Made by a program: the position numbers and the translations under genes | From: Verrucomicrobiota bacterium | GTDB taxonomy: Bacteria; Verrucomicrobiota; Verrucomicrobiia; Limisphaerales; CANJXF01 | Length of the DNA stretch: 23,065 nucleotides | Reading direction: 5' to 3' | Assembly (NCBI GenBank): GCA_038214755.1 | Contig: JBBQRQ010000081.1 | Coordinates: 1 to 23,065 of the forward strand | Shown: positions 6,032 to 22,799 of the stretch, piece after piece | How positions within the stretch are numbered: position 1 is the first letter of the stretch | Layout of the letters: each line of letters starts with the position of its first letter | The notes under the pieces: generated by a model | The model's input: only the letters and a program-made list of their open reading frames with translations | The model's database searches: none | What the model was told of the DNA's origin: nothing

Positions 6032-6081
6032 AAAGTGGGATTCGTCGCGGCGATCGACAGAAGCCAGGCAGGGCGCGTCAC

Positions 6082-6289
6082 GGGCGCATCTCAGTTTCTT
6101 GCAACTCTCATTAGCACCCGGCTTCAGCCGGGTGAACAGAAACAGATTGCGACCCTCAACCGCTTCAGCGGTTTCCCGCATGAGGCAAACCGCTGAAGCG
6201 GTTGAACTCGCCTCACGACCTCAACACCCGGCTGAAGCCGGGTGCTAATGAGATTCGGAACGAACATTGCAAGAAACTGAGATGCGCCC
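6082..6289. mobile_element. MITE copy 2 (208 bp), perfect 23-bp TIRs and 9-bp target-site duplication
   Basis: GGGCGCATCTCAGTTTCTTGCAA (6082-6104) / TTGCAAGAAACTGAGATGCGCCC (6267-6289). GCGCGTCAC directly repeated at 6073-6081 and 6290-6298. Internal nested inverted pairs 6106-6134/6225-6253 and 6156-6174/6187-6205. Confidence 0.92.
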
Positions 6290-6351
6290 GCGCGTCACCC
6301 CGTGCGCGCCGATTGGTTGACAAGATTTTTCTGCCGGTTAATTCTCCTGCC

Positions 6352-15880: not shown

Positions 15881-16004
15881 GGATGGCAACTCTACGACAC
15901 ATCTATGGAGTAAATTTCCGGCCCTTCAAGCCTGAGTTTTGCGCGCGAAAAATTAGAGAAATCACCAGCGAAATCAACAGGGTTGACGCAACTGATTTTA
16001 CGGT

Positions 16005-16053
16005 TCTCATTAAACACTGCGGCCTTGGCGCTAGACCCGCGGTGTTAATGAGA
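16005..16053. repeat. Short inverted repeat related to the MITE-internal palindrome
   Basis: TCTCATTAAACACTGCGG / CCGCGGTGTTAATGAGA, compare TCTCATTAGCACCCGG / CCGGGTGCTAATGAGA inside the MITE. Confidence 0.65.
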
Positions 16054-16240
16054 GAATGCGCCTGACAGAATTAGAGGCGTCGCCCGGAGCGGGAACATTG
16101 CTGGGATAGGAATTCGATTTAATAAACGAGACTTAGACGGTTTTTGTCCAGGACGGAGCCGCACAGTTGCGCTTAATCAGTTTTCTGTGCGGGGGCCAAT
16201 TTATATAATGGATCGGTGTAGAAATATCGTCAGGTGAGCC

Positions 16241-16927
16241 ATGTCGTTGAACCCAAAAATTATCGAATTGCGCCAGCTTTTGTCTGAGCGATTCCCCGGC
16301 GCGCGCTTCTCGGCGGACGCTGCGGCAAGACTCCACGCAGTTTGGCCGACGGGCATCGCGCAAATCGACGAGTTGCTGCAAGGTGGTCTGCCCAAAAGCG
16401 GAATCATCGAGGTGGTCAATGGCAGAAAAAATTCAGGGAGCGCGCTGTTTATTTCGGCCTTACTAAAAAAAGGCGCGTCGGAAAATCAAATCATCACGCT
16501 GATCGACGGGCAGGATTCGTTCGATCCGGGCGCATTTGAAAAAGAAACGTTGTCACGCTTGCTCTGGGTGCGTTGCAAAAATGCCGAGCAAGCGATGAAA
16601 GCCGTGGATTTGATTTTGCGCGACCGAAACTTGCCCTTGGTTTTGCTCGATCTGGCGCTGAATCCCCTGAAGCAACTTCGTAAAATCCCGTCATCCACGT
16701 GGTATCGACTGCAGCGAATTGCTGAATCGAGTTCCACCATTTTTGTCGCGGTCACACCGCAGGCGATGGTGGGTTGCGCGCAGGTGCGTCTTAATTTGCA
16801 CAGTCGTTTTACTTTGGAAGATTCGGACACGAGGCAAGATGAACTCCTCGATAAATTAAGAATTGAGCTGGCGCAATATCGCTTGCACCTCGGCGATGTT
16901 CTTGAAGAAAAAGCGGAGGCGGGCTGA
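16241..16927 (+). CDS. imuA: ImuA-like RecA-fold accessory protein
   Basis: PTGIAQIDELLQGGLPK, degenerate Walker A (GRKNSGS), IDGQDSFDP, RLLWVR and RLQR motifs. TGATG coupling to imuB. TATAAT at 16204-16209. Confidence 0.85.
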   Translation: MSLNPKIIELRQLLSERFPGARFSADAAARLHAVWPTGIAQIDELLQGGLPKSGIIEVVNGRKNSGSALFISALLKKGASENQIITLIDGQDSFDPGAFEKETLSRLLWVRCKNAEQAMKAVDLILRDRNLPLVLLDLALNPLKQLRKIPSSTWYRLQRIAESSSTIFVAVTPQAMVGCAQVRLNLHSRFTLEDSDTRQDELLDKLRIELAQYRLHLGDVLEEKAEAG

Positions 16928-18471
16928 TGTTTGCTGTCGTTTATATTCCAAATTTTTTTCTGCAAGCGGCGCTGCGGCACGAACCGGAATGGCTTTTGCG
17001 ACCCGTCGCTCTGCTCAACGAAGAAACGAAATTAATTTGTCAGGTAACTTGCATGGCACGAGAAGCCGGCGTTGGCGAAGGACAGACTTCCACGCAAGCG
17101 TTGGCGCGATGTTCGAACGTTTTTATTCGCCCGCGTTCCGTCGCGCAGGAAATTTCCGCCACGGAAGTTTTGCTGGAATGCGCTTATTCATTTTCCCCAA
17201 ACATCGAAGCCACCGCGCCCGGGATTTGCACGCTGGACTTAAAAGGATTGGCTATCGTGCTGCCGACATTCTGTCGGCGGAATGGGACGCACGATCGTCT
17301 TCGCGATGCAGTTGAATGCGTCGTTCTTTCTGCCGACAGAATGTCGGCAGCACTTTGGGCTGAAAAAATTATCACGCAACTCGCCGCCCTCAATTTGCGC
17401 GCACAAGTCGGCCTCGCGGAAAATCCTGACCTCGCGTTGCACGCCGCTAAAGTGGCGCAGCCATTTTTCCTGGTCGAAAATTCCAGCGAATTTATTTCGT
17501 CGCTGCCAATTGAAAGCATTGAGCCACCGTCCGAAATTCTCGACATCCTTCGCCGCTGGGGCATTCGCACTCTGGGCGAATTCACCGCGTTGCAAAAAGA
17601 AAAACTGGTGGAACGTCTCGGCGCGGAATCGCTTGATTTATTTGATCGCGCCATGGCCACCACCATTCGTCCGCTCAATCTGGTTCGTCCCAGGGAAATT
17701 TTTGAAGAATCCATCGAGTTTGAAAATGAAATCGAAACGCTCCAGCCGCTCCTTTTTATTTTGCGGCGTTTCATCGAACAACTGTCGCGGCGCCTTGAAT
17801 TTTTTTATTTCGTCGCGCAGGAAATCCAACTGCGGCTGACGCTCAGTTCCGGCGAAAATCTGGAACGCAGTTTTCGCGTTCCGTCTCCGACGCGCAATAT
17901 CGAGACGCTCTTCCGCATGTTGCAAACGCATCTTGAAACGGTCCAAACCGATTCGTCGATTGTGGCGCTGCATCTCGCCGCCCGGCCAGCGAAGCCCGAA
18001 CATTTTCAATTCGGTTTGTTTGAAACCGCGTTGCGCGATCCGAATCAATTTTACGAAACACTCGCGCAACTCGCCTCGCTGCTCGGCTCGGAGCGCGTCG
18101 GCACGCCCGTGTTGGAAGATACTTTTCGGCCGGACGCCTTTCGCATGGAGCCGGTCAATTTTGAGTCCGAGGGGAAATTTACAATAGGTAATTTGAACGC
18201 GGAAAATTCAGCGGGCTTGTCATTGCGAAGATTCCGTCCTTCGTTGCCAGCCGTGGTGGAGTTGCGTGAAAATCAGCCGGCGCTTTTGCGCAGCGAAATT
18301 TTTTCCGGGCCCATTGCCAAAGCACGCGGGCCGTTCCGTTGCTCTGGAAATTGGTGGGAGCAAAATAAACTTTGGAATCGTGACGAGTGGGACATTGAAA
18401 CGAGCAACGGCGATCTGTTTCGCGTCTTTACGCAAAACGGAGAATGGTTTGTGGAAGGAGCCTATGATTAA
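16927..18471 (+). CDS. imuB: ImuB, catalytically inactive Y-family polymerase homologue
   Basis: Y-family scaffold without catalytic acidic residues (AREAGV..G...QALARC, FSPNIE, WGIRTLGEF), clamp-binding-like QFGLF, C-terminal GPFR.SGNWW..RDEW domain. Confidence 0.9.
   Translation: MFAVVYIPNFFLQAALRHEPEWLLRPVALLNEETKLICQVTCMAREAGVGEGQTSTQALARCSNVFIRPRSVAQEISATEVLLECAYSFSPNIEATAPGICTLDLKGLAIVLPTFCRRNGTHDRLRDAVECVVLSADRMSAALWAEKIITQLAALNLRAQVGLAENPDLALHAAKVAQPFFLVENSSEFISSLPIESIEPPSEILDILRRWGIRTLGEFTALQKEKLVERLGAESLDLFDRAMATTIRPLNLVRPREIFEESIEFENEIETLQPLLFILRRFIEQLSRRLEFFYFVAQEIQLRLTLSSGENLERSFRVPSPTRNIETLFRMLQTHLETVQTDSSIVALHLAARPAKPEHFQFGLFETALRDPNQFYETLAQLASLLGSERVGTPVLEDTFRPDAFRMEPVNFESEGKFTIGNLNAENSAGLSLRRFRPSLPAVVELRENQPALLRSEIFSGPIAKARGPFRCSGNWWEQNKLWNRDEWDIETSNGDLFRVFTQNGEWFVEGAYD
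17257..17353. repeat. REP-like inverted pair in frame within imuB
   Basis: GTGCTGCCGACATTCTGTCGGCGGAA / TTCTGCCGACAGAATGTCGGCAGCAC, 25/26 complementary. Each arm is itself a hairpin. Confidence 0.9.
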
Positions 18472-18599
18472 ACACCAACATCCAAGCTCCAAGCTCCAGA
18501 GAAATTCCAATAACCAAACTTCAAATGTGAGGTCACGCGGTGTTTTGAAGTTTGAAATTTGGAGCTTCTCTGGTGTTTGGATGTTGGTGTTTGGAATTT
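18470..18599. repeat. Heptamer-periodic inverted repeat filling the imuB-dnaE2 spacer
   Basis: Two 56-nt arms (18470-18525, 18544-18599) of AANNNCC-type units around a central AGAGAA, imperfectly complementary. Confidence 0.85.
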
Positions 18600-18606
18600 T
18601 TTTCCT

Positions 18607-21600
18607 ATGAGCTACGTCGAACTCCATGCCCGAAGCGCGTTTAGTTTTCTGCGCGGCTCGTCTCATCCCGAACAACTCGCTGAAGTCGCCGCGCAATTAA
18701 ATTTGCCAGCGATGGCCATTTGCGACCGCAATGGTGTTTACGGCGCGCCAAGATTTTTCAACAAGGCGAAGGAAATTGGTTTGCGCCCCATTGTCGGCGC
18801 GGAGTTGACGATGGAAGACGATTCCGTTTTGCCGGTGCTGGTTGAAAACCGCGCGGGCTATCAGAATCTTTGCCGGCTTCTCACCCACGCTCACCTGCGG
18901 AGCGAAAAAGGAAAAAGCAAAGTGGGCTGGGATGAATTGCCGGAGTTTGTTCAAGGGTTAGTCGCGCTAACGGGTGATGAAGAAGGGCCGCTCGTGAAAG
19001 CGATTTGTAGGAGACGAGGTGACGAGTCTCATTTCAAAAATAATCAGAATCTCCTCACGTCGATTCCTACAATTTTGGAGCGCCTCGTTCAAACGTTCGG
19101 GAACAAAAACGTTTTTGTCGAAATCCAACGACACCACATTCGCGGCGAGGAACGCATCAATAAATCTCTCGTGGAACTTGCGGCGCAATTTCGTCTTCCG
19201 TTGCTGGCAACGAACGGCGTTCTTCATGCCACCCCCGCTGGAAGACAGGCGCTCGACGTTTTCACCTGCGCTCGAAATCACACCCACCTCGATGCCGCTG
19301 GCAGATTACTCGCGCAAAACAGCGAGCGCTTTTTAAAAAACGAAAAGCAGATGCGCGAACTGTTCCGCGATTTGCCGGAAGCGATTGAAAATACTTCGCC
19401 CCTCGCCGAGCGTCTTCAATTCTCTCTCGATAATCTTGGCTATGAATTTCCGAAATACTCCGTCCCGCCCGGACACGATGCGAATTCCTTTTTACGCGAA
19501 CGAACTTTGGCGGGGGCGAGAAAGCGATATGCCGGCGAAATCCCCGCGAAAGTTTTTCAGCAGGTGAACCACGAACTCGCGCTCATTCAAAAACTGGGCG
19601 TTGCCGGATATTTTTTAATCGTCTGGGACATGGTCGAGTTTTGCGCGCAGGAAAACATCATGGCGCAAGGTCGCGGCAGCGCGGCGAATAGCTCAGTCTG
19701 TTTTTGCCTCGGCATCACGAACGTTGATCCGCTGAAGTTTCACACACTGTTCGAACGGTTTCTCAGCGAAGGAAGAAAAAATAATTGGCCGGACATCGAC
19801 ATCGATTTGCCGAGCGGCGACCGGCGCGAGCGCGTCATTCAGGAAGTTTACAAACGTTACGGCAAAAATAGTGGGGCAGGCTGCCAGCCTGCCAGTGATA
19901 AAAACAACACCGCAGGCTGGCTAGCAGCCTGCCCCACTATTTGTGGTGCGGCCATGACCGCCAATGTCATTTGTTATCGCGGACGCAGCGCCGCTCGTGA
20001 AATTGGCAAAGCTCTAAATATTTCCACCGACGTGCTCGACCGTTTCTCAAATCTTTTTGCCAATGGAGATTTTCCGCACACGCTGGATTTCGTCGCGCAA
20101 ATGGAAAAGGCTGGTTTGCCTTCACAACATCCACGCGCTCTCGCCTTCGCCACTCTCTACCAACAAATTGCCGGAGAATATTTGCCGCGACATCTCGGCC
20201 AGCACTCCGGCGGAATGATTATTTGCCAGGACCAACTCAGCTCAATTGTTCCACTTGAGAATGCTTCGATGCCTGGCCGCGTCGTCGCGCAATGGGATAA
20301 AGATGACTGCGAAGAACTCGGCATTATCAAAGTGGATTTTCTCGGACTCGGCATGATGTCCGTCATTCAAGACAGCGTTGAACTCACGCGAGAGTTGGGA
20401 CGACCGCTCGATCTGGCTAATCTTCCGCCGGACGATCCGAAAACTTTTGAGATGATTCGCGCCGCGGACACCATTGGCGTTTTTCAAATCGAAAGCCGCG
20501 CGCAAATGGCGACGTTGCCGCGGATGAAACCGAAAACTTTTTATGATCTGTGTATTGAAGTCGCGATCATTCGCCCCGGACCGATCCAGGGAAACTTGAT
20601 GCATCCGTATCTGGCGCGCCGCGCGGGAAAAGAGCCGATCACTTATTACGATAAAAATTTAGAGCCGATTCTTAAGCCGGTTTTGGAGCGGACGTTGGGC
20701 GTGCCGCTCTTCCAGGAACAAATGCTGGAAATCGCCATGGTGCTGACCGATTTCACCGGCTCGGAAGCGGAAGAATTACGACGCGCGTTGAGCTTTCATC
20801 GTTCGCACGAAAAAATGCAACGCGTGGAAAAAAAACTTCGCGCGGCCATGCAGCGCAAAGGTCATTCCGAAGAAATCATCGAGCAAATTGTGGGCGCGAT
20901 CAGTTCGTTTGCGCTCTACGGTTTTCCCGAATCGCACGCCATCAGCTTCGCGCATCTGGCCTACGCGACGGCCTATTTGAAAGCGCACCGCGCACCGGAA
21001 TTTTACGCCAGTCTGCTGAACAATCAGCCGATGGGATTTTATTCGTCAGCAACGATTGTCAAAGATGGCAAGCGTCATGGGTTAAAATTTCGTCCCGTCT
21101 GCGCCGGCGAATCTGAATGGCTCTGCACAATTGCAAAAGACGATTCCATTCGCCTCGGCTTTTGCGTGGTGCAAGGACTTCGGCAGGATCGCGCCAATCA
21201 AATGTTGGAGGAGCGGGCCAAACAAAATTTTGATTCGATTCGAGATTTCAAATTGCGAAATCAATTCAACAAAGAGGAATTACGAACCCTCGCGGAAATC
21301 GGCGCGTTGAATGGTCTGGGCGCGCATCGTCGCGAGGCGCTGTGGGAAGTAGAACGCGAAATTCCGCAGGATGATTTGTTTTCGTGGCGTGGCAGAGACG
21401 CGTTCCACCGCGTTTCTGATCAAAACGAAAAATGGGACACGGTGGAACGTGTCCCTACCGAGTCAGACGAAAACTGTCCGCTGCTCCCGATGAATCCGGC
21501 CGAGCGACTTCGCGCGGATTACAATGGAACAAATTTAACTACCGGCGCGCATCCCATGGCTTTGCTCCGCAAAAATTTGGAATCACAAAACATCTGGCGC

Positions 21601-21909
21601 GCCTGCGATCTGCCCAAAGCGACACCGGGCCAAACCGTTCGCATCGCCGGAAATGTGATTTGCCGGCAGCGACCCGGCACGGCCAAGGGTTTTGTTTTCA
21701 TCACGCTCGAAGACGAAACCGGCATGAGCAACGCGATTGTTGCTCCAAAACTTTTTGAAAAGCTACGACTGGTGATTACGCAGGAGTCTTTTCTCTTGAT
21801 CGAGGGGCGACTACAGAATTCCGAGAACGTGATTTTGATTCAGGCGCGACACATCGAACGGTTATCTCACGAACATTTAGCGGGAAGTTCCTCTTACGAT
21901 TTTCATTAA
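18607..21909 (+). CDS. dnaE2: Error-prone DNA polymerase III alpha subunit
   Basis: YVELHARSAFSFL (PHP), GRGSAANS, FERF, PDIDID, HLGQHSGG, KVDFLGL, FQIESRAQ, YGFPESHA, RQRPGTAKG (OB) and C-terminal SYDFH. Start re-called to ATG 18607. Confidence 0.97.
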   Translation: MSYVELHARSAFSFLRGSSHPEQLAEVAAQLNLPAMAICDRNGVYGAPRFFNKAKEIGLRPIVGAELTMEDDSVLPVLVENRAGYQNLCRLLTHAHLRSEKGKSKVGWDELPEFVQGLVALTGDEEGPLVKAICRRRGDESHFKNNQNLLTSIPTILERLVQTFGNKNVFVEIQRHHIRGEERINKSLVELAAQFRLPLLATNGVLHATPAGRQALDVFTCARNHTHLDAAGRLLAQNSERFLKNEKQMRELFRDLPEAIENTSPLAERLQFSLDNLGYEFPKYSVPPGHDANSFLRERTLAGARKRYAGEIPAKVFQQVNHELALIQKLGVAGYFLIVWDMVEFCAQENIMAQGRGSAANSSVCFCLGITNVDPLKFHTLFERFLSEGRKNNWPDIDIDLPSGDRRERVIQEVYKRYGKNSGAGCQPASDKNNTAGWLAACPTICGAAMTANVICYRGRSAAREIGKALNISTDVLDRFSNLFANGDFPHTLDFVAQMEKAGLPSQHPRALAFATLYQQIAGEYLPRHLGQHSGGMIICQDQLSSIVPLENASMPGRVVAQWDKDDCEELGIIKVDFLGLGMMSVIQDSVELTRELGRPLDLANLPPDDPKTFEMIRAADTIGVFQIESRAQMATLPRMKPKTFYDLCIEVAIIRPGPIQGNLMHPYLARRAGKEPITYYDKNLEPILKPVLERTLGVPLFQEQMLEIAMVLTDFTGSEAEELRRALSFHRSHEKMQRVEKKLRAAMQRKGHSEEIIEQIVGAISSFALYGFPESHAISFAHLAYATAYLKAHRAPEFYASLLNNQPMGFYSSATIVKDGKRHGLKFRPVCAGESEWLCTIAKDDSIRLGFCVVQGLRQDRANQMLEERAKQNFDSIRDFKLRNQFNKEELRTLAEIGALNGLGAHRREALWEVEREIPQDDLFSWRGRDAFHRVSDQNEKWDTVERVPTESDENCPLLPMNPAERLRADYNGTNLTTGAHPMALLRKNLESQNIWRACDLPKATPGQTVRIAGNVICRQRPGTAKGFVFITLEDETGMSNAIVAPKLFEKLRLVITQESFLLIEGRLQNSENVILIQARHIERLSHEHLAGSSSYDFH
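19005..19072. repeat. GTAG-type REP-like pair in frame within dnaE2 PHP domain
   Basis: TTGTAGGAGACGAGGTGACGAGTCTC ... GAATCTCCTCACGTCGATTCCTACAA, a degenerate inverted pair sharing CTCCTCACGTCG with family A. Confidence 0.75.
19866..19942. repeat. REP-like pair in frame within dnaE2 catalytic region
   Basis: AAATAGTGGGGCAGGCTGCCAGCCTGC / GCAGGCTGGCTAGCAGCCTGCCCCACTATTT, perfect apart from 4 extra nt in the right arm. Confidence 0.92.
21391..21459. repeat. REP-like pair in frame within dnaE2 linker before the OB domain
   Basis: GGCAGAGACGCGTTCCACCGCGTTTC / GGGACACGGTGGAACGTGTCCCTACC, 20/26 complementary. Exactly 69 nt. Confidence 0.85.
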
Positions 21910-22799
21910 TCTTCAACTATCTGGAAATCGGGATGCTTCGGTTTGAAGACTTTGTTGATATATTCCCCAACAGAATCAGCGGCTAACAATTCCTTGTATT
22001 CGGCGGATTCAACTTTCGCGTATCGGTAAATCTCCCGGGCAAAGTCGATATCCAAGAATTCTCTTCCCGGATGATAACGAACTCTCTTAACCGCGGTGGA
22101 TTCAACCCGAACCCATTTCGGTTGTTTTGGTCGGTCCCCAATCACCTTCGCGACTTTTTTCAGGTCGGCGATAAAGCGTTTCATTTCGAGACGCCGCGAT
22201 TTGTCATCGGGCGCGCGTAAGATGGATGAAGGGTGCACAGTGGCAGTCACGTGTTGAGCGAGCGGCGAATTAAGAAATTCTCCACGTTGCTGGCTCACGC
22301 GAAAATTTTTTCCCAACAACGCCTGCGCCGCAGTTGCACCGAGGCAAACCACCACTTTCGGTTTCAACAAATCCAGTTCTGCATCCAGCCACGGACGGCA
22401 CGCCGCGATCTCGCGCGCGTTTGGTTTCTTGTGAATGCGCCGTTTTCCTTTCGGTTCCCATTTGAAATGTTTGACCGCGTTCGTCACGTAAACTTCGTCG
22501 CGATTGATGCCCGCTTCCCCCAGCGCCTTGTCCAAAAGTTTTCCCGCTGGACCGACGAACGGTTTTCCCGCGAGATCTTCGTCGTTGCCCGGTTGTTCGC
22601 CGACAAAAACAACTTTCGCGTGCTTTGATCCTTCGCCAAAAACAGTCTGCGTTCCCGATTTCCAGAGCGGACAAGCGGTGCAACCTTTCGCGGCCTTCTG
22701 AAGTTTTTCCAGGGTCGGCGAAGGTGGAATGAAGGCGGCGGCAGTTTGAAAATTTCCCGGGCATTGGCGGACACTTGGTTTTTCCTCCCGCAGTTCCAT
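21906..22799 (-). CDS. udgX: UdgX family uracil-DNA binding protein (family 4 UDG fold) with C-terminal KTSC-like domain
   Basis: CTAC (Fe-S), GEQPG, PFVGPAG, TNAVKHFK, KRRIH (22431-22445), LGATA and HPS motifs, then VESTAVKRVRY...LDIDF...YRY..V...Y..LL.ADSVGEYIN. Start re-called to ATG 22799. Confidence 0.9.
   Translation of the reverse strand: MELREEKPSVRQCPGNFQTAAAFIPPSPTLEKLQKAAKGCTACPLWKSGTQTVFGEGSKHAKVVFVGEQPGNDEDLAGKPFVGPAGKLLDKALGEAGINRDEVYVTNAVKHFKWEPKGKRRIHKKPNAREIAACRPWLDAELDLLKPKVVVCLGATAAQALLGKNFRVSQQRGEFLNSPLAQHVTATVHPSSILRAPDDKSRRLEMKRFIADLKKVAKVIGDRPKQPKWVRVESTAVKRVRYHPGREFLDIDFAREIYRYAKVESAEYKELLAADSVGEYINKVFKPKHPDFQIVED

Follow-up and report, generated by a model that had tools for sequence, protein, structure and literature searches.

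The ImuA-ImuB-DnaE2 mutasome operon in the window analysed here (23,065 nucleotides, the end of contig C81 in a genome of 5.1 Mb, the homologues of its DnaE2 being labelled as Verrucomicrobiota) carries one hairpin pair inside imuB and three inside dnaE2, all of them in frame (Table 1). At a probability of about 0.68, the four elements are repeats of the repetitive extragenic palindromic (REP) type in its paired form (REP doublet forming a hairpin, REPIN), likely spread by REP-associated tyrosine transposases (RAYTs) and likely kept in loops tolerating 12-28 extra residues. The finding is real and had been correctly described in the original prediction, which was made from the letters of the DNA; it is largely known, and represents a dense example of a published, little-followed phenomenon. 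In the proposed course of events, RAYT (Y1/HUH) transposases would spread REPINs through the genome, most copies landing in genes would be removed by selection, and copies in permissive loops of imuB and dnaE2 would survive and be translated as disordered loops. DnaE2 and ImuB would be favoured as part of a broader group of large DNA-handling enzymes that are probably of low abundance, with no job for the hairpins that is specific to the mutasome.

Table 1. Coordinates (in the window) of the repeat elements and of the genes of the operon
Feature	Position	Strand	Remarks
Family A REPIN, GTGC-tagged arms, tags outward	17257..17353		ImuB aa 111-143, variable loop of IMS domain
Family B REPIN, GTAG-tagged, decayed	19005..19072		DnaE2 aa 133-156, PHP-domain loop
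Family C REPIN, GTGG-tagged	19866..19942		DnaE2 aa 421-446; exact 75-bp/25-aa insertion
Family D REPIN, GTAG-tagged, one tag mutated	21391..21459		DnaE2 aa 929-951, HhH-OB domain linker
imuA, RecA-like, 228 aa	16241..16927	+	Open reading frame; weak RecA Pfam match below cut-off
imuB, Y-family polymerase-like, 514 aa	16927..18471	+	IMS domain; orthologues in 13 fetched loci
dnaE2 (ImuC), error-prone C-family polymerase, 1100 aa, intact	18607..21909	+	Five Pfam domains; homologues named error-prone DNA polymerase
Heptamer-repeat hairpin between imuB and dnaE2	18470..18599		z -7.7; absent from the original prediction

In-frame REPINs of four families

Each element consists of two tagged hairpin units of 23-25 nt in inverted orientation, their tags pointing outward, and the inserts measure 68-97 bp. 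The RNA folds of the four elements gave z values of -10.1, -5.2, -9.6 and -5.5, and none of 200 shuffles was as good for any of them; the arms of the imuB element are 26 nt long and 96% complementary. The positions, open frames and folds of the four palindromic pairs were all confirmed as originally predicted, and their assignment to four distinct families was borne out by the arms, which fell into four separate genome-wide profiles (70, 212, 114 and 11 units for families A, B, C and D, respectively). The features of REPs and REPINs were present as short tagged stem-loops (tags GTGC, GTAG, GTGG and GTAG, respectively), as many dispersed copies (the unit counts just given) and as inverted pairs with a spacer, dimers being the commonest class of element in the genome (746/1799). 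GTGG variants of the tag have been described (Di Nocera, De Gregorio and Rocco 2013, PMC3733652, cited throughout from the accessible parts of the article and its supplements), and the GTGC tag of family A is a further variant beside the GTAG-type tags. Genome-wide, 12% of the elements are gene-interior; the intragenic share is 20-25% for families B and C, 20/44 for family A and 4/8 for family D. The 19005 element belongs to a subfamily of a repeat with further, intergenic copies in the window (at 2320, 2597 and 13576).

The reading frames of imuA, imuB and dnaE2 are all open with the expected domains, and the assignment to an ImuA-ImuB-DnaE2 mutasome was based on the RecA-like, Y-family-like and C-family genes in one operon and on the catalytic aspartates of DnaE2. 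All of the 431 highly conserved columns and the catalytic motifs are retained in this DnaE2 (median of 120 homologues, 99.3%), by which a pseudogene or a gene under relaxed selection was ruled out. No interior element was found in imuA by the genome repeat census. Upstream of imuA, no match to the verrucomicrobial LexA motif was found with up to 2 mismatches allowed, so this motif gives no sign that the operon is induced by DNA damage.

For the comparison of insertions, the operon region was taken from 15 relatives. Among them, G009 is unpublished; it is counted in the 14 relatives, the two genomes sharing the 19005 element and the 12 junctions mentioned below, and no conclusion rests on it alone. 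The alignment to orthologues, which had been proposed for the definition of the inserts, identified the 19866 element as an exact insertion: the segment at DnaE2 aa 421-446 is 38 aa long here versus 13 aa in 14/14 relatives, a clean gain of 75 bp that falls after a helix and ahead of a strand, about 20 residues past the catalytic DIDID motif. The other three elements gain length in loops whose length varies anyway among the relatives. The ImuB segment with the family A element is 43 aa long versus 15-20 aa in congeners (a net gain of about 23-28 aa over the shortest congener forms), and the net gains at 19005 and 21391 over the shortest congener form are about 12 and 17 aa, respectively. The 19005 element is common to G003 and G009, and an internally deleted remnant of it is present in G007.

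Several other explanations of the inserts were rejected. An assembly artefact is unlikely, since the contigs of run X1 (a single DNA run that may be the source data of this genome) span the three dnaE2 elements without differences and meet inside the imuB element. A classical DDE-type miniature inverted-repeat transposable element was discarded because no clear direct target-site repeat was seen on comparing the filled with the empty 19866 site, the sole site clean enough to judge. An intein or self-splicing intron has conserved ends and a splicing domain or ribozyme core of 100 or more residues or bases; the inserts are simple stems of 68-97 bp, and this possibility was likewise rejected (no Rfam search was run). 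As for the other long genes of the window, which had been described as free of such insertions, none has an interior element; those genes are all at most 460 aa long, and the absence says little because genes that short rarely carry an element (0.7-3.6% genome-wide).

Insertion slots and the imuB-dnaE2 junction

Internal gains of at least 12 aa were confined to four places in 120 DnaE2 homologues (the best 120 of 8000): aa 124-160 (lengthened in 48/120, main interval), aa 419-447 (filled in 3/120, the turn being 2 residues long in the remaining 117), aa 843-849 (14 and 5 of 120, in two adjacent intervals) and aa 925-958 (lengthened in 48/120). These counts were made at the protein level, and many of the peptides look repeat-derived as judged without their DNA. 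The three inserts at aa 419-447 have the same first two residues (corresponding to a GTGG-type tag), represent two or more families and are placed on three different branches, three changes at this slot being forced by the starred branches of a quick tree of 67 of the 120 homologues with Shimodaira-Hasegawa-like approximate likelihood ratio test support only. By regular-expression measurement, the 19866 site was 2 residues long in 66 of 67 loci and 12 in one. The four-slot map shows where the polymerase tolerates insertions.

The imuB and dnaE2 loops of relatives often hold other repeat families: family A was found in a different ImuB loop in G003 and G007, and unrelated hairpins were found at dnaE2 slots in G051, G057, G058 and G040. 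A whole RAYT cassette inside DnaE2 was not detected in the 120 homologues, as judged by an HUH-type motif and a Y1 Pfam label. In an AlphaFold model of DnaE2 (predicted local distance difference test (pLDDT), 82.8; predicted template modelling score (pTM), 0.79), the three inserts are low-confidence loops and the flanking helices and strands are intact. The pLDDT is below 50 at aa 142-146 (19005), 421-444 (19866) and 927-954 (21391), with the helix at 405-419 and the strand at 448-456 kept, and these low values are partly built in because most alignment rows have no inserts.

The fifth hairpin (18470-18599) puts 135 bp between imuB and dnaE2, its end lying 7 nt ahead of the dnaE2 ATG. In 9 of the 12 relatives measured, these genes overlap or are no more than 12 nt apart, and a similar but shorter hairpin is located at this junction in G002. 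Of all the elements, the fifth hairpin would be the likeliest to influence the translation of dnaE2.

Genome-wide distribution and transposases

The census was based on 4061 gene calls made here and 121 repeat profiles (29 hits in the reversed-genome control), and yielded 1799 short repeat elements covering 3.5% of the genome. Gene-interior elements amounted to 203 of 1644 hairpin-type elements; after four heptamer-type profiles were moved out, 197 remained in 157 genes (one element in 126, two in 22 and three in 9), of which 95 were annotated. Genes with three elements other than dnaE2 encode a DUF7133 protein, an amylo-glucosidase, a UDPGP-domain protein, a xanthine-dehydrogenase-like enzyme, an FtsX permease, UvrA, a DinG-like helicase and a pseudouridine synthase-methyltransferase. 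Elements were also found in the genes for the replicative DnaE1, ValRS, IleRS, AlaRS, PheS, PriA, SMC, MutS, RecQ and RecG, in further repair genes (Mfd and RecJ) and in metabolic genes (SucA, aconitase, PurL, IspG and GcvP). None was found in those for RpoB, RpoC, EF-G, IF2, SecA, ClpC, Lon, RecA, RecN, RuvB and UvrC (located by sequence motifs). The specificity for the mutasome suggested in the original prediction is refuted, because such inserts are carried by 157 genes, essential ones among them, including those for DnaE1, tRNA ligases and metabolic enzymes.

The density of elements is about 0.06 per kb in genes versus about 1.5 per kb outside them, i.e. about 4%. The survival expected in genes is about 15%, calculated from the frame (one in three) and the stop codons (46% of frames open), and the difference between 15% and 4% would therefore point to further loss at the protein level, provided that targeting is even. 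Under a uniform rate, 0.6 genes would be expected to hold three elements, compared with the 9-11 seen; of the 176 genes that measure 2.7-4.5 kb, 7 hold three, DnaE2 being one of them. Departures from the consensus in intragenic units numbered 148/2575, 135/2538 and 134/2484 at codon positions 1, 2 and 3 (5.8, 5.3 and 5.4%, respectively; P 0.77), intragenic units are as diverged from the consensus as intergenic ones (P 0.37), and no sign of selection on the peptides was observed.

Three further observations on inserts were made in the census. A second in-frame class, composed of tandem 7-base units, accounts for 72 gene-interior elements; one UvrA gene (G000:C9:63620-66811, given as an example of the 7-base class) carries six inserts of both classes. 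In the ValRS gene (1393 aa, G000:C56:8071-12252, L069), two stretches of LPD3 (polyvalent-protein) domain lie beside repeat inserts. The DnaE1 gene (G000:C163:3-3062) contains a long repeat-derived insert from about aa 337.

On comparison of gene classes, a specificity for the mutasome did not stand, and an excess in helicase and repair genes did. With dnaE2 left out and two matches without a usable gene call dropped, 12 of 32 Pfam-defined DNA- or RNA-handling enzymes carry elements versus 4.4 expected by length (P 0.0006). This set comprises helicase-family genes (10/22 with elements versus 3.2 expected) and topoisomerases, MutS and DnaE1 (2/10 versus 1.2 expected). The P values for gene classes are optimistic, because the families were picked after the annotations had been seen, although the hypothesis was already in print. 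Over 95 related loci, a strict, family-blind scan for inverted repeats (which recovers 2 of the window's 4 elements) counted 22 for dnaE2 (263 kb), 5 for imuB (70 kb), 0 for imuA (17 kb) and 2 for neighbouring genes (191 kb). Strong hairpins are accordingly about 8-fold denser in imuB and dnaE2 (27 in 334 kb) than in their shorter neighbours, a figure which overstates the effect because the neighbours are shorter, the rates rise with gene length (from 0.024 to 0.073 per kb in G000) and the loci are kin. The excess in helicase and repair genes, controlled for length, is real in this genome.

Y1_Tnp matches were found at 17 places in the genome, several of them bracketed by REP pairs. The search for RAYT/IS200-like transposases flanked by each family, as had been proposed, was run over 30 RAYT loci; such flanking was found for families A (in G006), C (in G000) and D (in G007), and no RAYT was found for family B in these loci. 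Units of the family C type flank two RAYT domains that form in-frame parts of a DinG-like helicase and a UDPGP-domain protein. In PriA of G006, where the gene ends at the contig end, an in-frame RAYT N-terminus is preceded by a family A pair, and G007 has a free RAYT gene amid ten family D units. Mobilisation of the elements by RAYTs would be consistent with this arrangement.

Complete RAYT-like Y1 domains with flanking REPs were observed in frame in PriA, a DinG-like helicase and a UDPGP-domain protein, at G000:C88:17590-20586 (L097), C64:9580-12468 (L061) and C33:13409-17728 (L068). The PriA of G003, G005 and G002 matches the query that carries the RAYT along its length, that of G008 and G006 contains a different RAYT, and that of G001 and G007 has no insert. 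The in-frame RAYT domains in host genes are probably more novel than the mutasome hairpins.

Known systems and alternative readings

In-frame palindromic insertions had been given in the original prediction as known from Rickettsia palindromic elements (RPEs), REPs being normally extragenic; the premise that such inserts are known only as RPEs is wrong, for in-frame REP dimers in dnaE2 were published in 2013 (PMC3733652). In-frame REP dimers coding for 20-30 residues were reported for genes of the verrucomicrobium Opitutus terrae (70 supplement rows), and inserts in dnaE2 for four species, namely O. terrae (GTAG) and three alphaproteobacteria with CGTC repeats. They are located at aa 934-971 of O. 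terrae Oter_4053 and aa 128-157 in R. palustris, and were also reported in the dnaE2 of S. wittichi and E. litoralis. Other targets in that report are both uvrA genes, helicases and metabolic enzymes; an excess in replication and repair genes was noted, and both a neutral-loop and a mutator reading were offered. The closest known repeats are GTAG-17/18/19 of O. terrae (PMC3733652). By residue number, unaligned, the Oter_4053 and R. palustris sites match the 21391 and 19005 slots. In contrast to that report, one dnaE2 here has three inserts of three families, imuB carries a fourth family, and one insert lies near a catalytic motif; genes of the same class mostly had different insert sites there, whereas slots are reused here over 120 homologues. 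imuB is not mentioned in the accessible supplements. Nor were imuB inserts, slot reuse in DnaE2, a length-controlled test or RAYTs in frame in host genes found in the accessible parts of that article or in literature searches, in which subscription journals are thinly covered.

In REPIN-RAYT systems (Bertels and Rainey 2011, PMC3116915, PMC3337134, accessible parts), as here, multi-copy, spaced inverted tagged pairs of several families flank Y1 genes. Unlike in those systems, up to half of the copies of some families are intragenic here, variant tags occur (GTGC, GTGG), and PriA, DinG-like and UDPGP-domain proteins contain in frame the RAYTs that are likely cognate to families A and C; neither "fused" nor "helicase" is mentioned in the accessible parts of Bertels 2017 (PMC5581495). 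With RPEs, the elements share in-frame palindromic insertion in conserved, intact genes, dnaE included (as given in PMC3733652). RPE-4 and RPE-6 are CGTC-tagged and have no dedicated transposase (PMC3733652), whereas the tags here are of the GTAG type and RAYT-like genes are associated with them; the two groups are compared here by description.

The suggestion that the genes tolerate repeat-derived peptides and act as a sink fits the three elements in DnaE2 and the greater number of strong hairpins in imuB and dnaE2 than in their neighbours. Several points weigh against tolerance as the whole account. The excess in DNA-handling genes and in imuB and dnaE2 is described by it and not predicted by it; elements also occur in some abundant enzymes (SucA, aconitase and GcvP); no clear link was found between a family's intragenic share and its open frames; and the 19866 insert lies near the active site, in a turn which is 2 residues long in 117/120 homologues and in which an insert was gained three times. 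These three gains suggest targeting as well as tolerance. The intragenic share ranges from 0 to 53% among families, with the four families described here at the high end, and this points to family-specific targeting or peptide tolerance.

Insertion bias as the main cause was judged unlikely. It would operate through RAYTs acting on single-stranded DNA (available during damage or in genes then transcribed) and through short target motifs, so that repair genes would be struck oftener. The use of single-stranded intermediates by IS200/IS605-type Y1 enzymes (bioRxiv 10.1101/279083, accessible parts) agrees with it, as do the excess in helicase and repair genes (UvrA, Mfd, RecG, RecQ, RecJ, DinG, PriA and MutS) and the three separate gains at one dnaE2 junction with the same first two residues from a GTGG-type tag. 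However, the absence of elements from RecA, RecN, RuvB and UvrC, the lack of a match to the verrucomicrobial LexA motif upstream of imuA and the presence of elements in tRNA ligases and metabolic enzymes are not what it would lead one to expect.

Slightly less probable again is a domesticated brake, in which mRNA hairpins or added loops would lower or retune mutasome output and be kept for that purpose. Any given insert is missing from most orthologues, and families, positions and lengths vary from one species to another; decay is seen in the 19005 and 21391 copies, with most of the 19005 element gone from one congener, and no codon-position signal was detected. These observations argue against a brake in spite of the very stable folds (the 26-bp stem in imuB, the 135-bp uncoupling hairpin and the three dnaE2 stems), the imuB-dnaE2 junction (tight in 9/12 relatives, interrupted by a hairpin here and in G002) and the hairpin enrichment in imuB and dnaE2 across related loci. 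Altered activity of repair proteins was speculated on in 2013 (PMC3733652). A more far-reaching version, doubtful to a somewhat greater degree, holds that REPIN traffic is steered into the DNA-damage machinery as a heritable dial of mutation rate: RAYTs inside PriA and DinG would reach stalled forks and single-stranded DNA and seed fixed slots in DnaE2, ImuB and repair helicases, among them the thrice-filled turn near the DnaE2 active site, and the mRNA stems or loops would set the mutasome activity of a lineage. If the inserts tuned the mutasome, selfish repeats would control bacterial evolvability.

Removal of the hairpins at the RNA level, or their excision from DNA as switches by which the short protein would be restored, is very improbable: the architecture (long stems with closely joined ends) agrees with it, but all four elements keep the frame, which is not required if they are removed, intragenic copies are as aged as intergenic ones, run X1 assembles through all three dnaE2 elements unchanged and without precise excision (contigs drop rare variants), and the sole joint across the 19866 element, at a depth of about 4, has three other letters between. 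The contig ending at this joint is likely from another organism because it differs at 29 of about 249 letters. In the evidence at the DNA level, no support was found for splicing, translational control or excisable switches, as had been put forward in the original prediction. With retention of RAYT-spread REPINs in tolerant loops as the preferred reading, natural filled and empty alleles make the question of 2013 testable, namely why REPs gather in replication and repair genes and whether mutation rate is affected.

Around the operon, a single hairpin (16003-16058, z -4.8) is located about 180 bp upstream of imuA and resembles an intergenic repeat family of the window. No match to DNA polymerase I (PF00476) was found in the 97% complete assembly, where the gene may be unassembled. 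A gene on the reverse strand (21906-22799, -), convergent with dnaE2 and overlapping its stop codon, encodes a uracil-DNA-glycosylase-family protein fused to a KTSC domain. Elsewhere in the window, intergenic repeat clusters at 2320-2621 and 6080-6290 consist of three to four families nested in one another.

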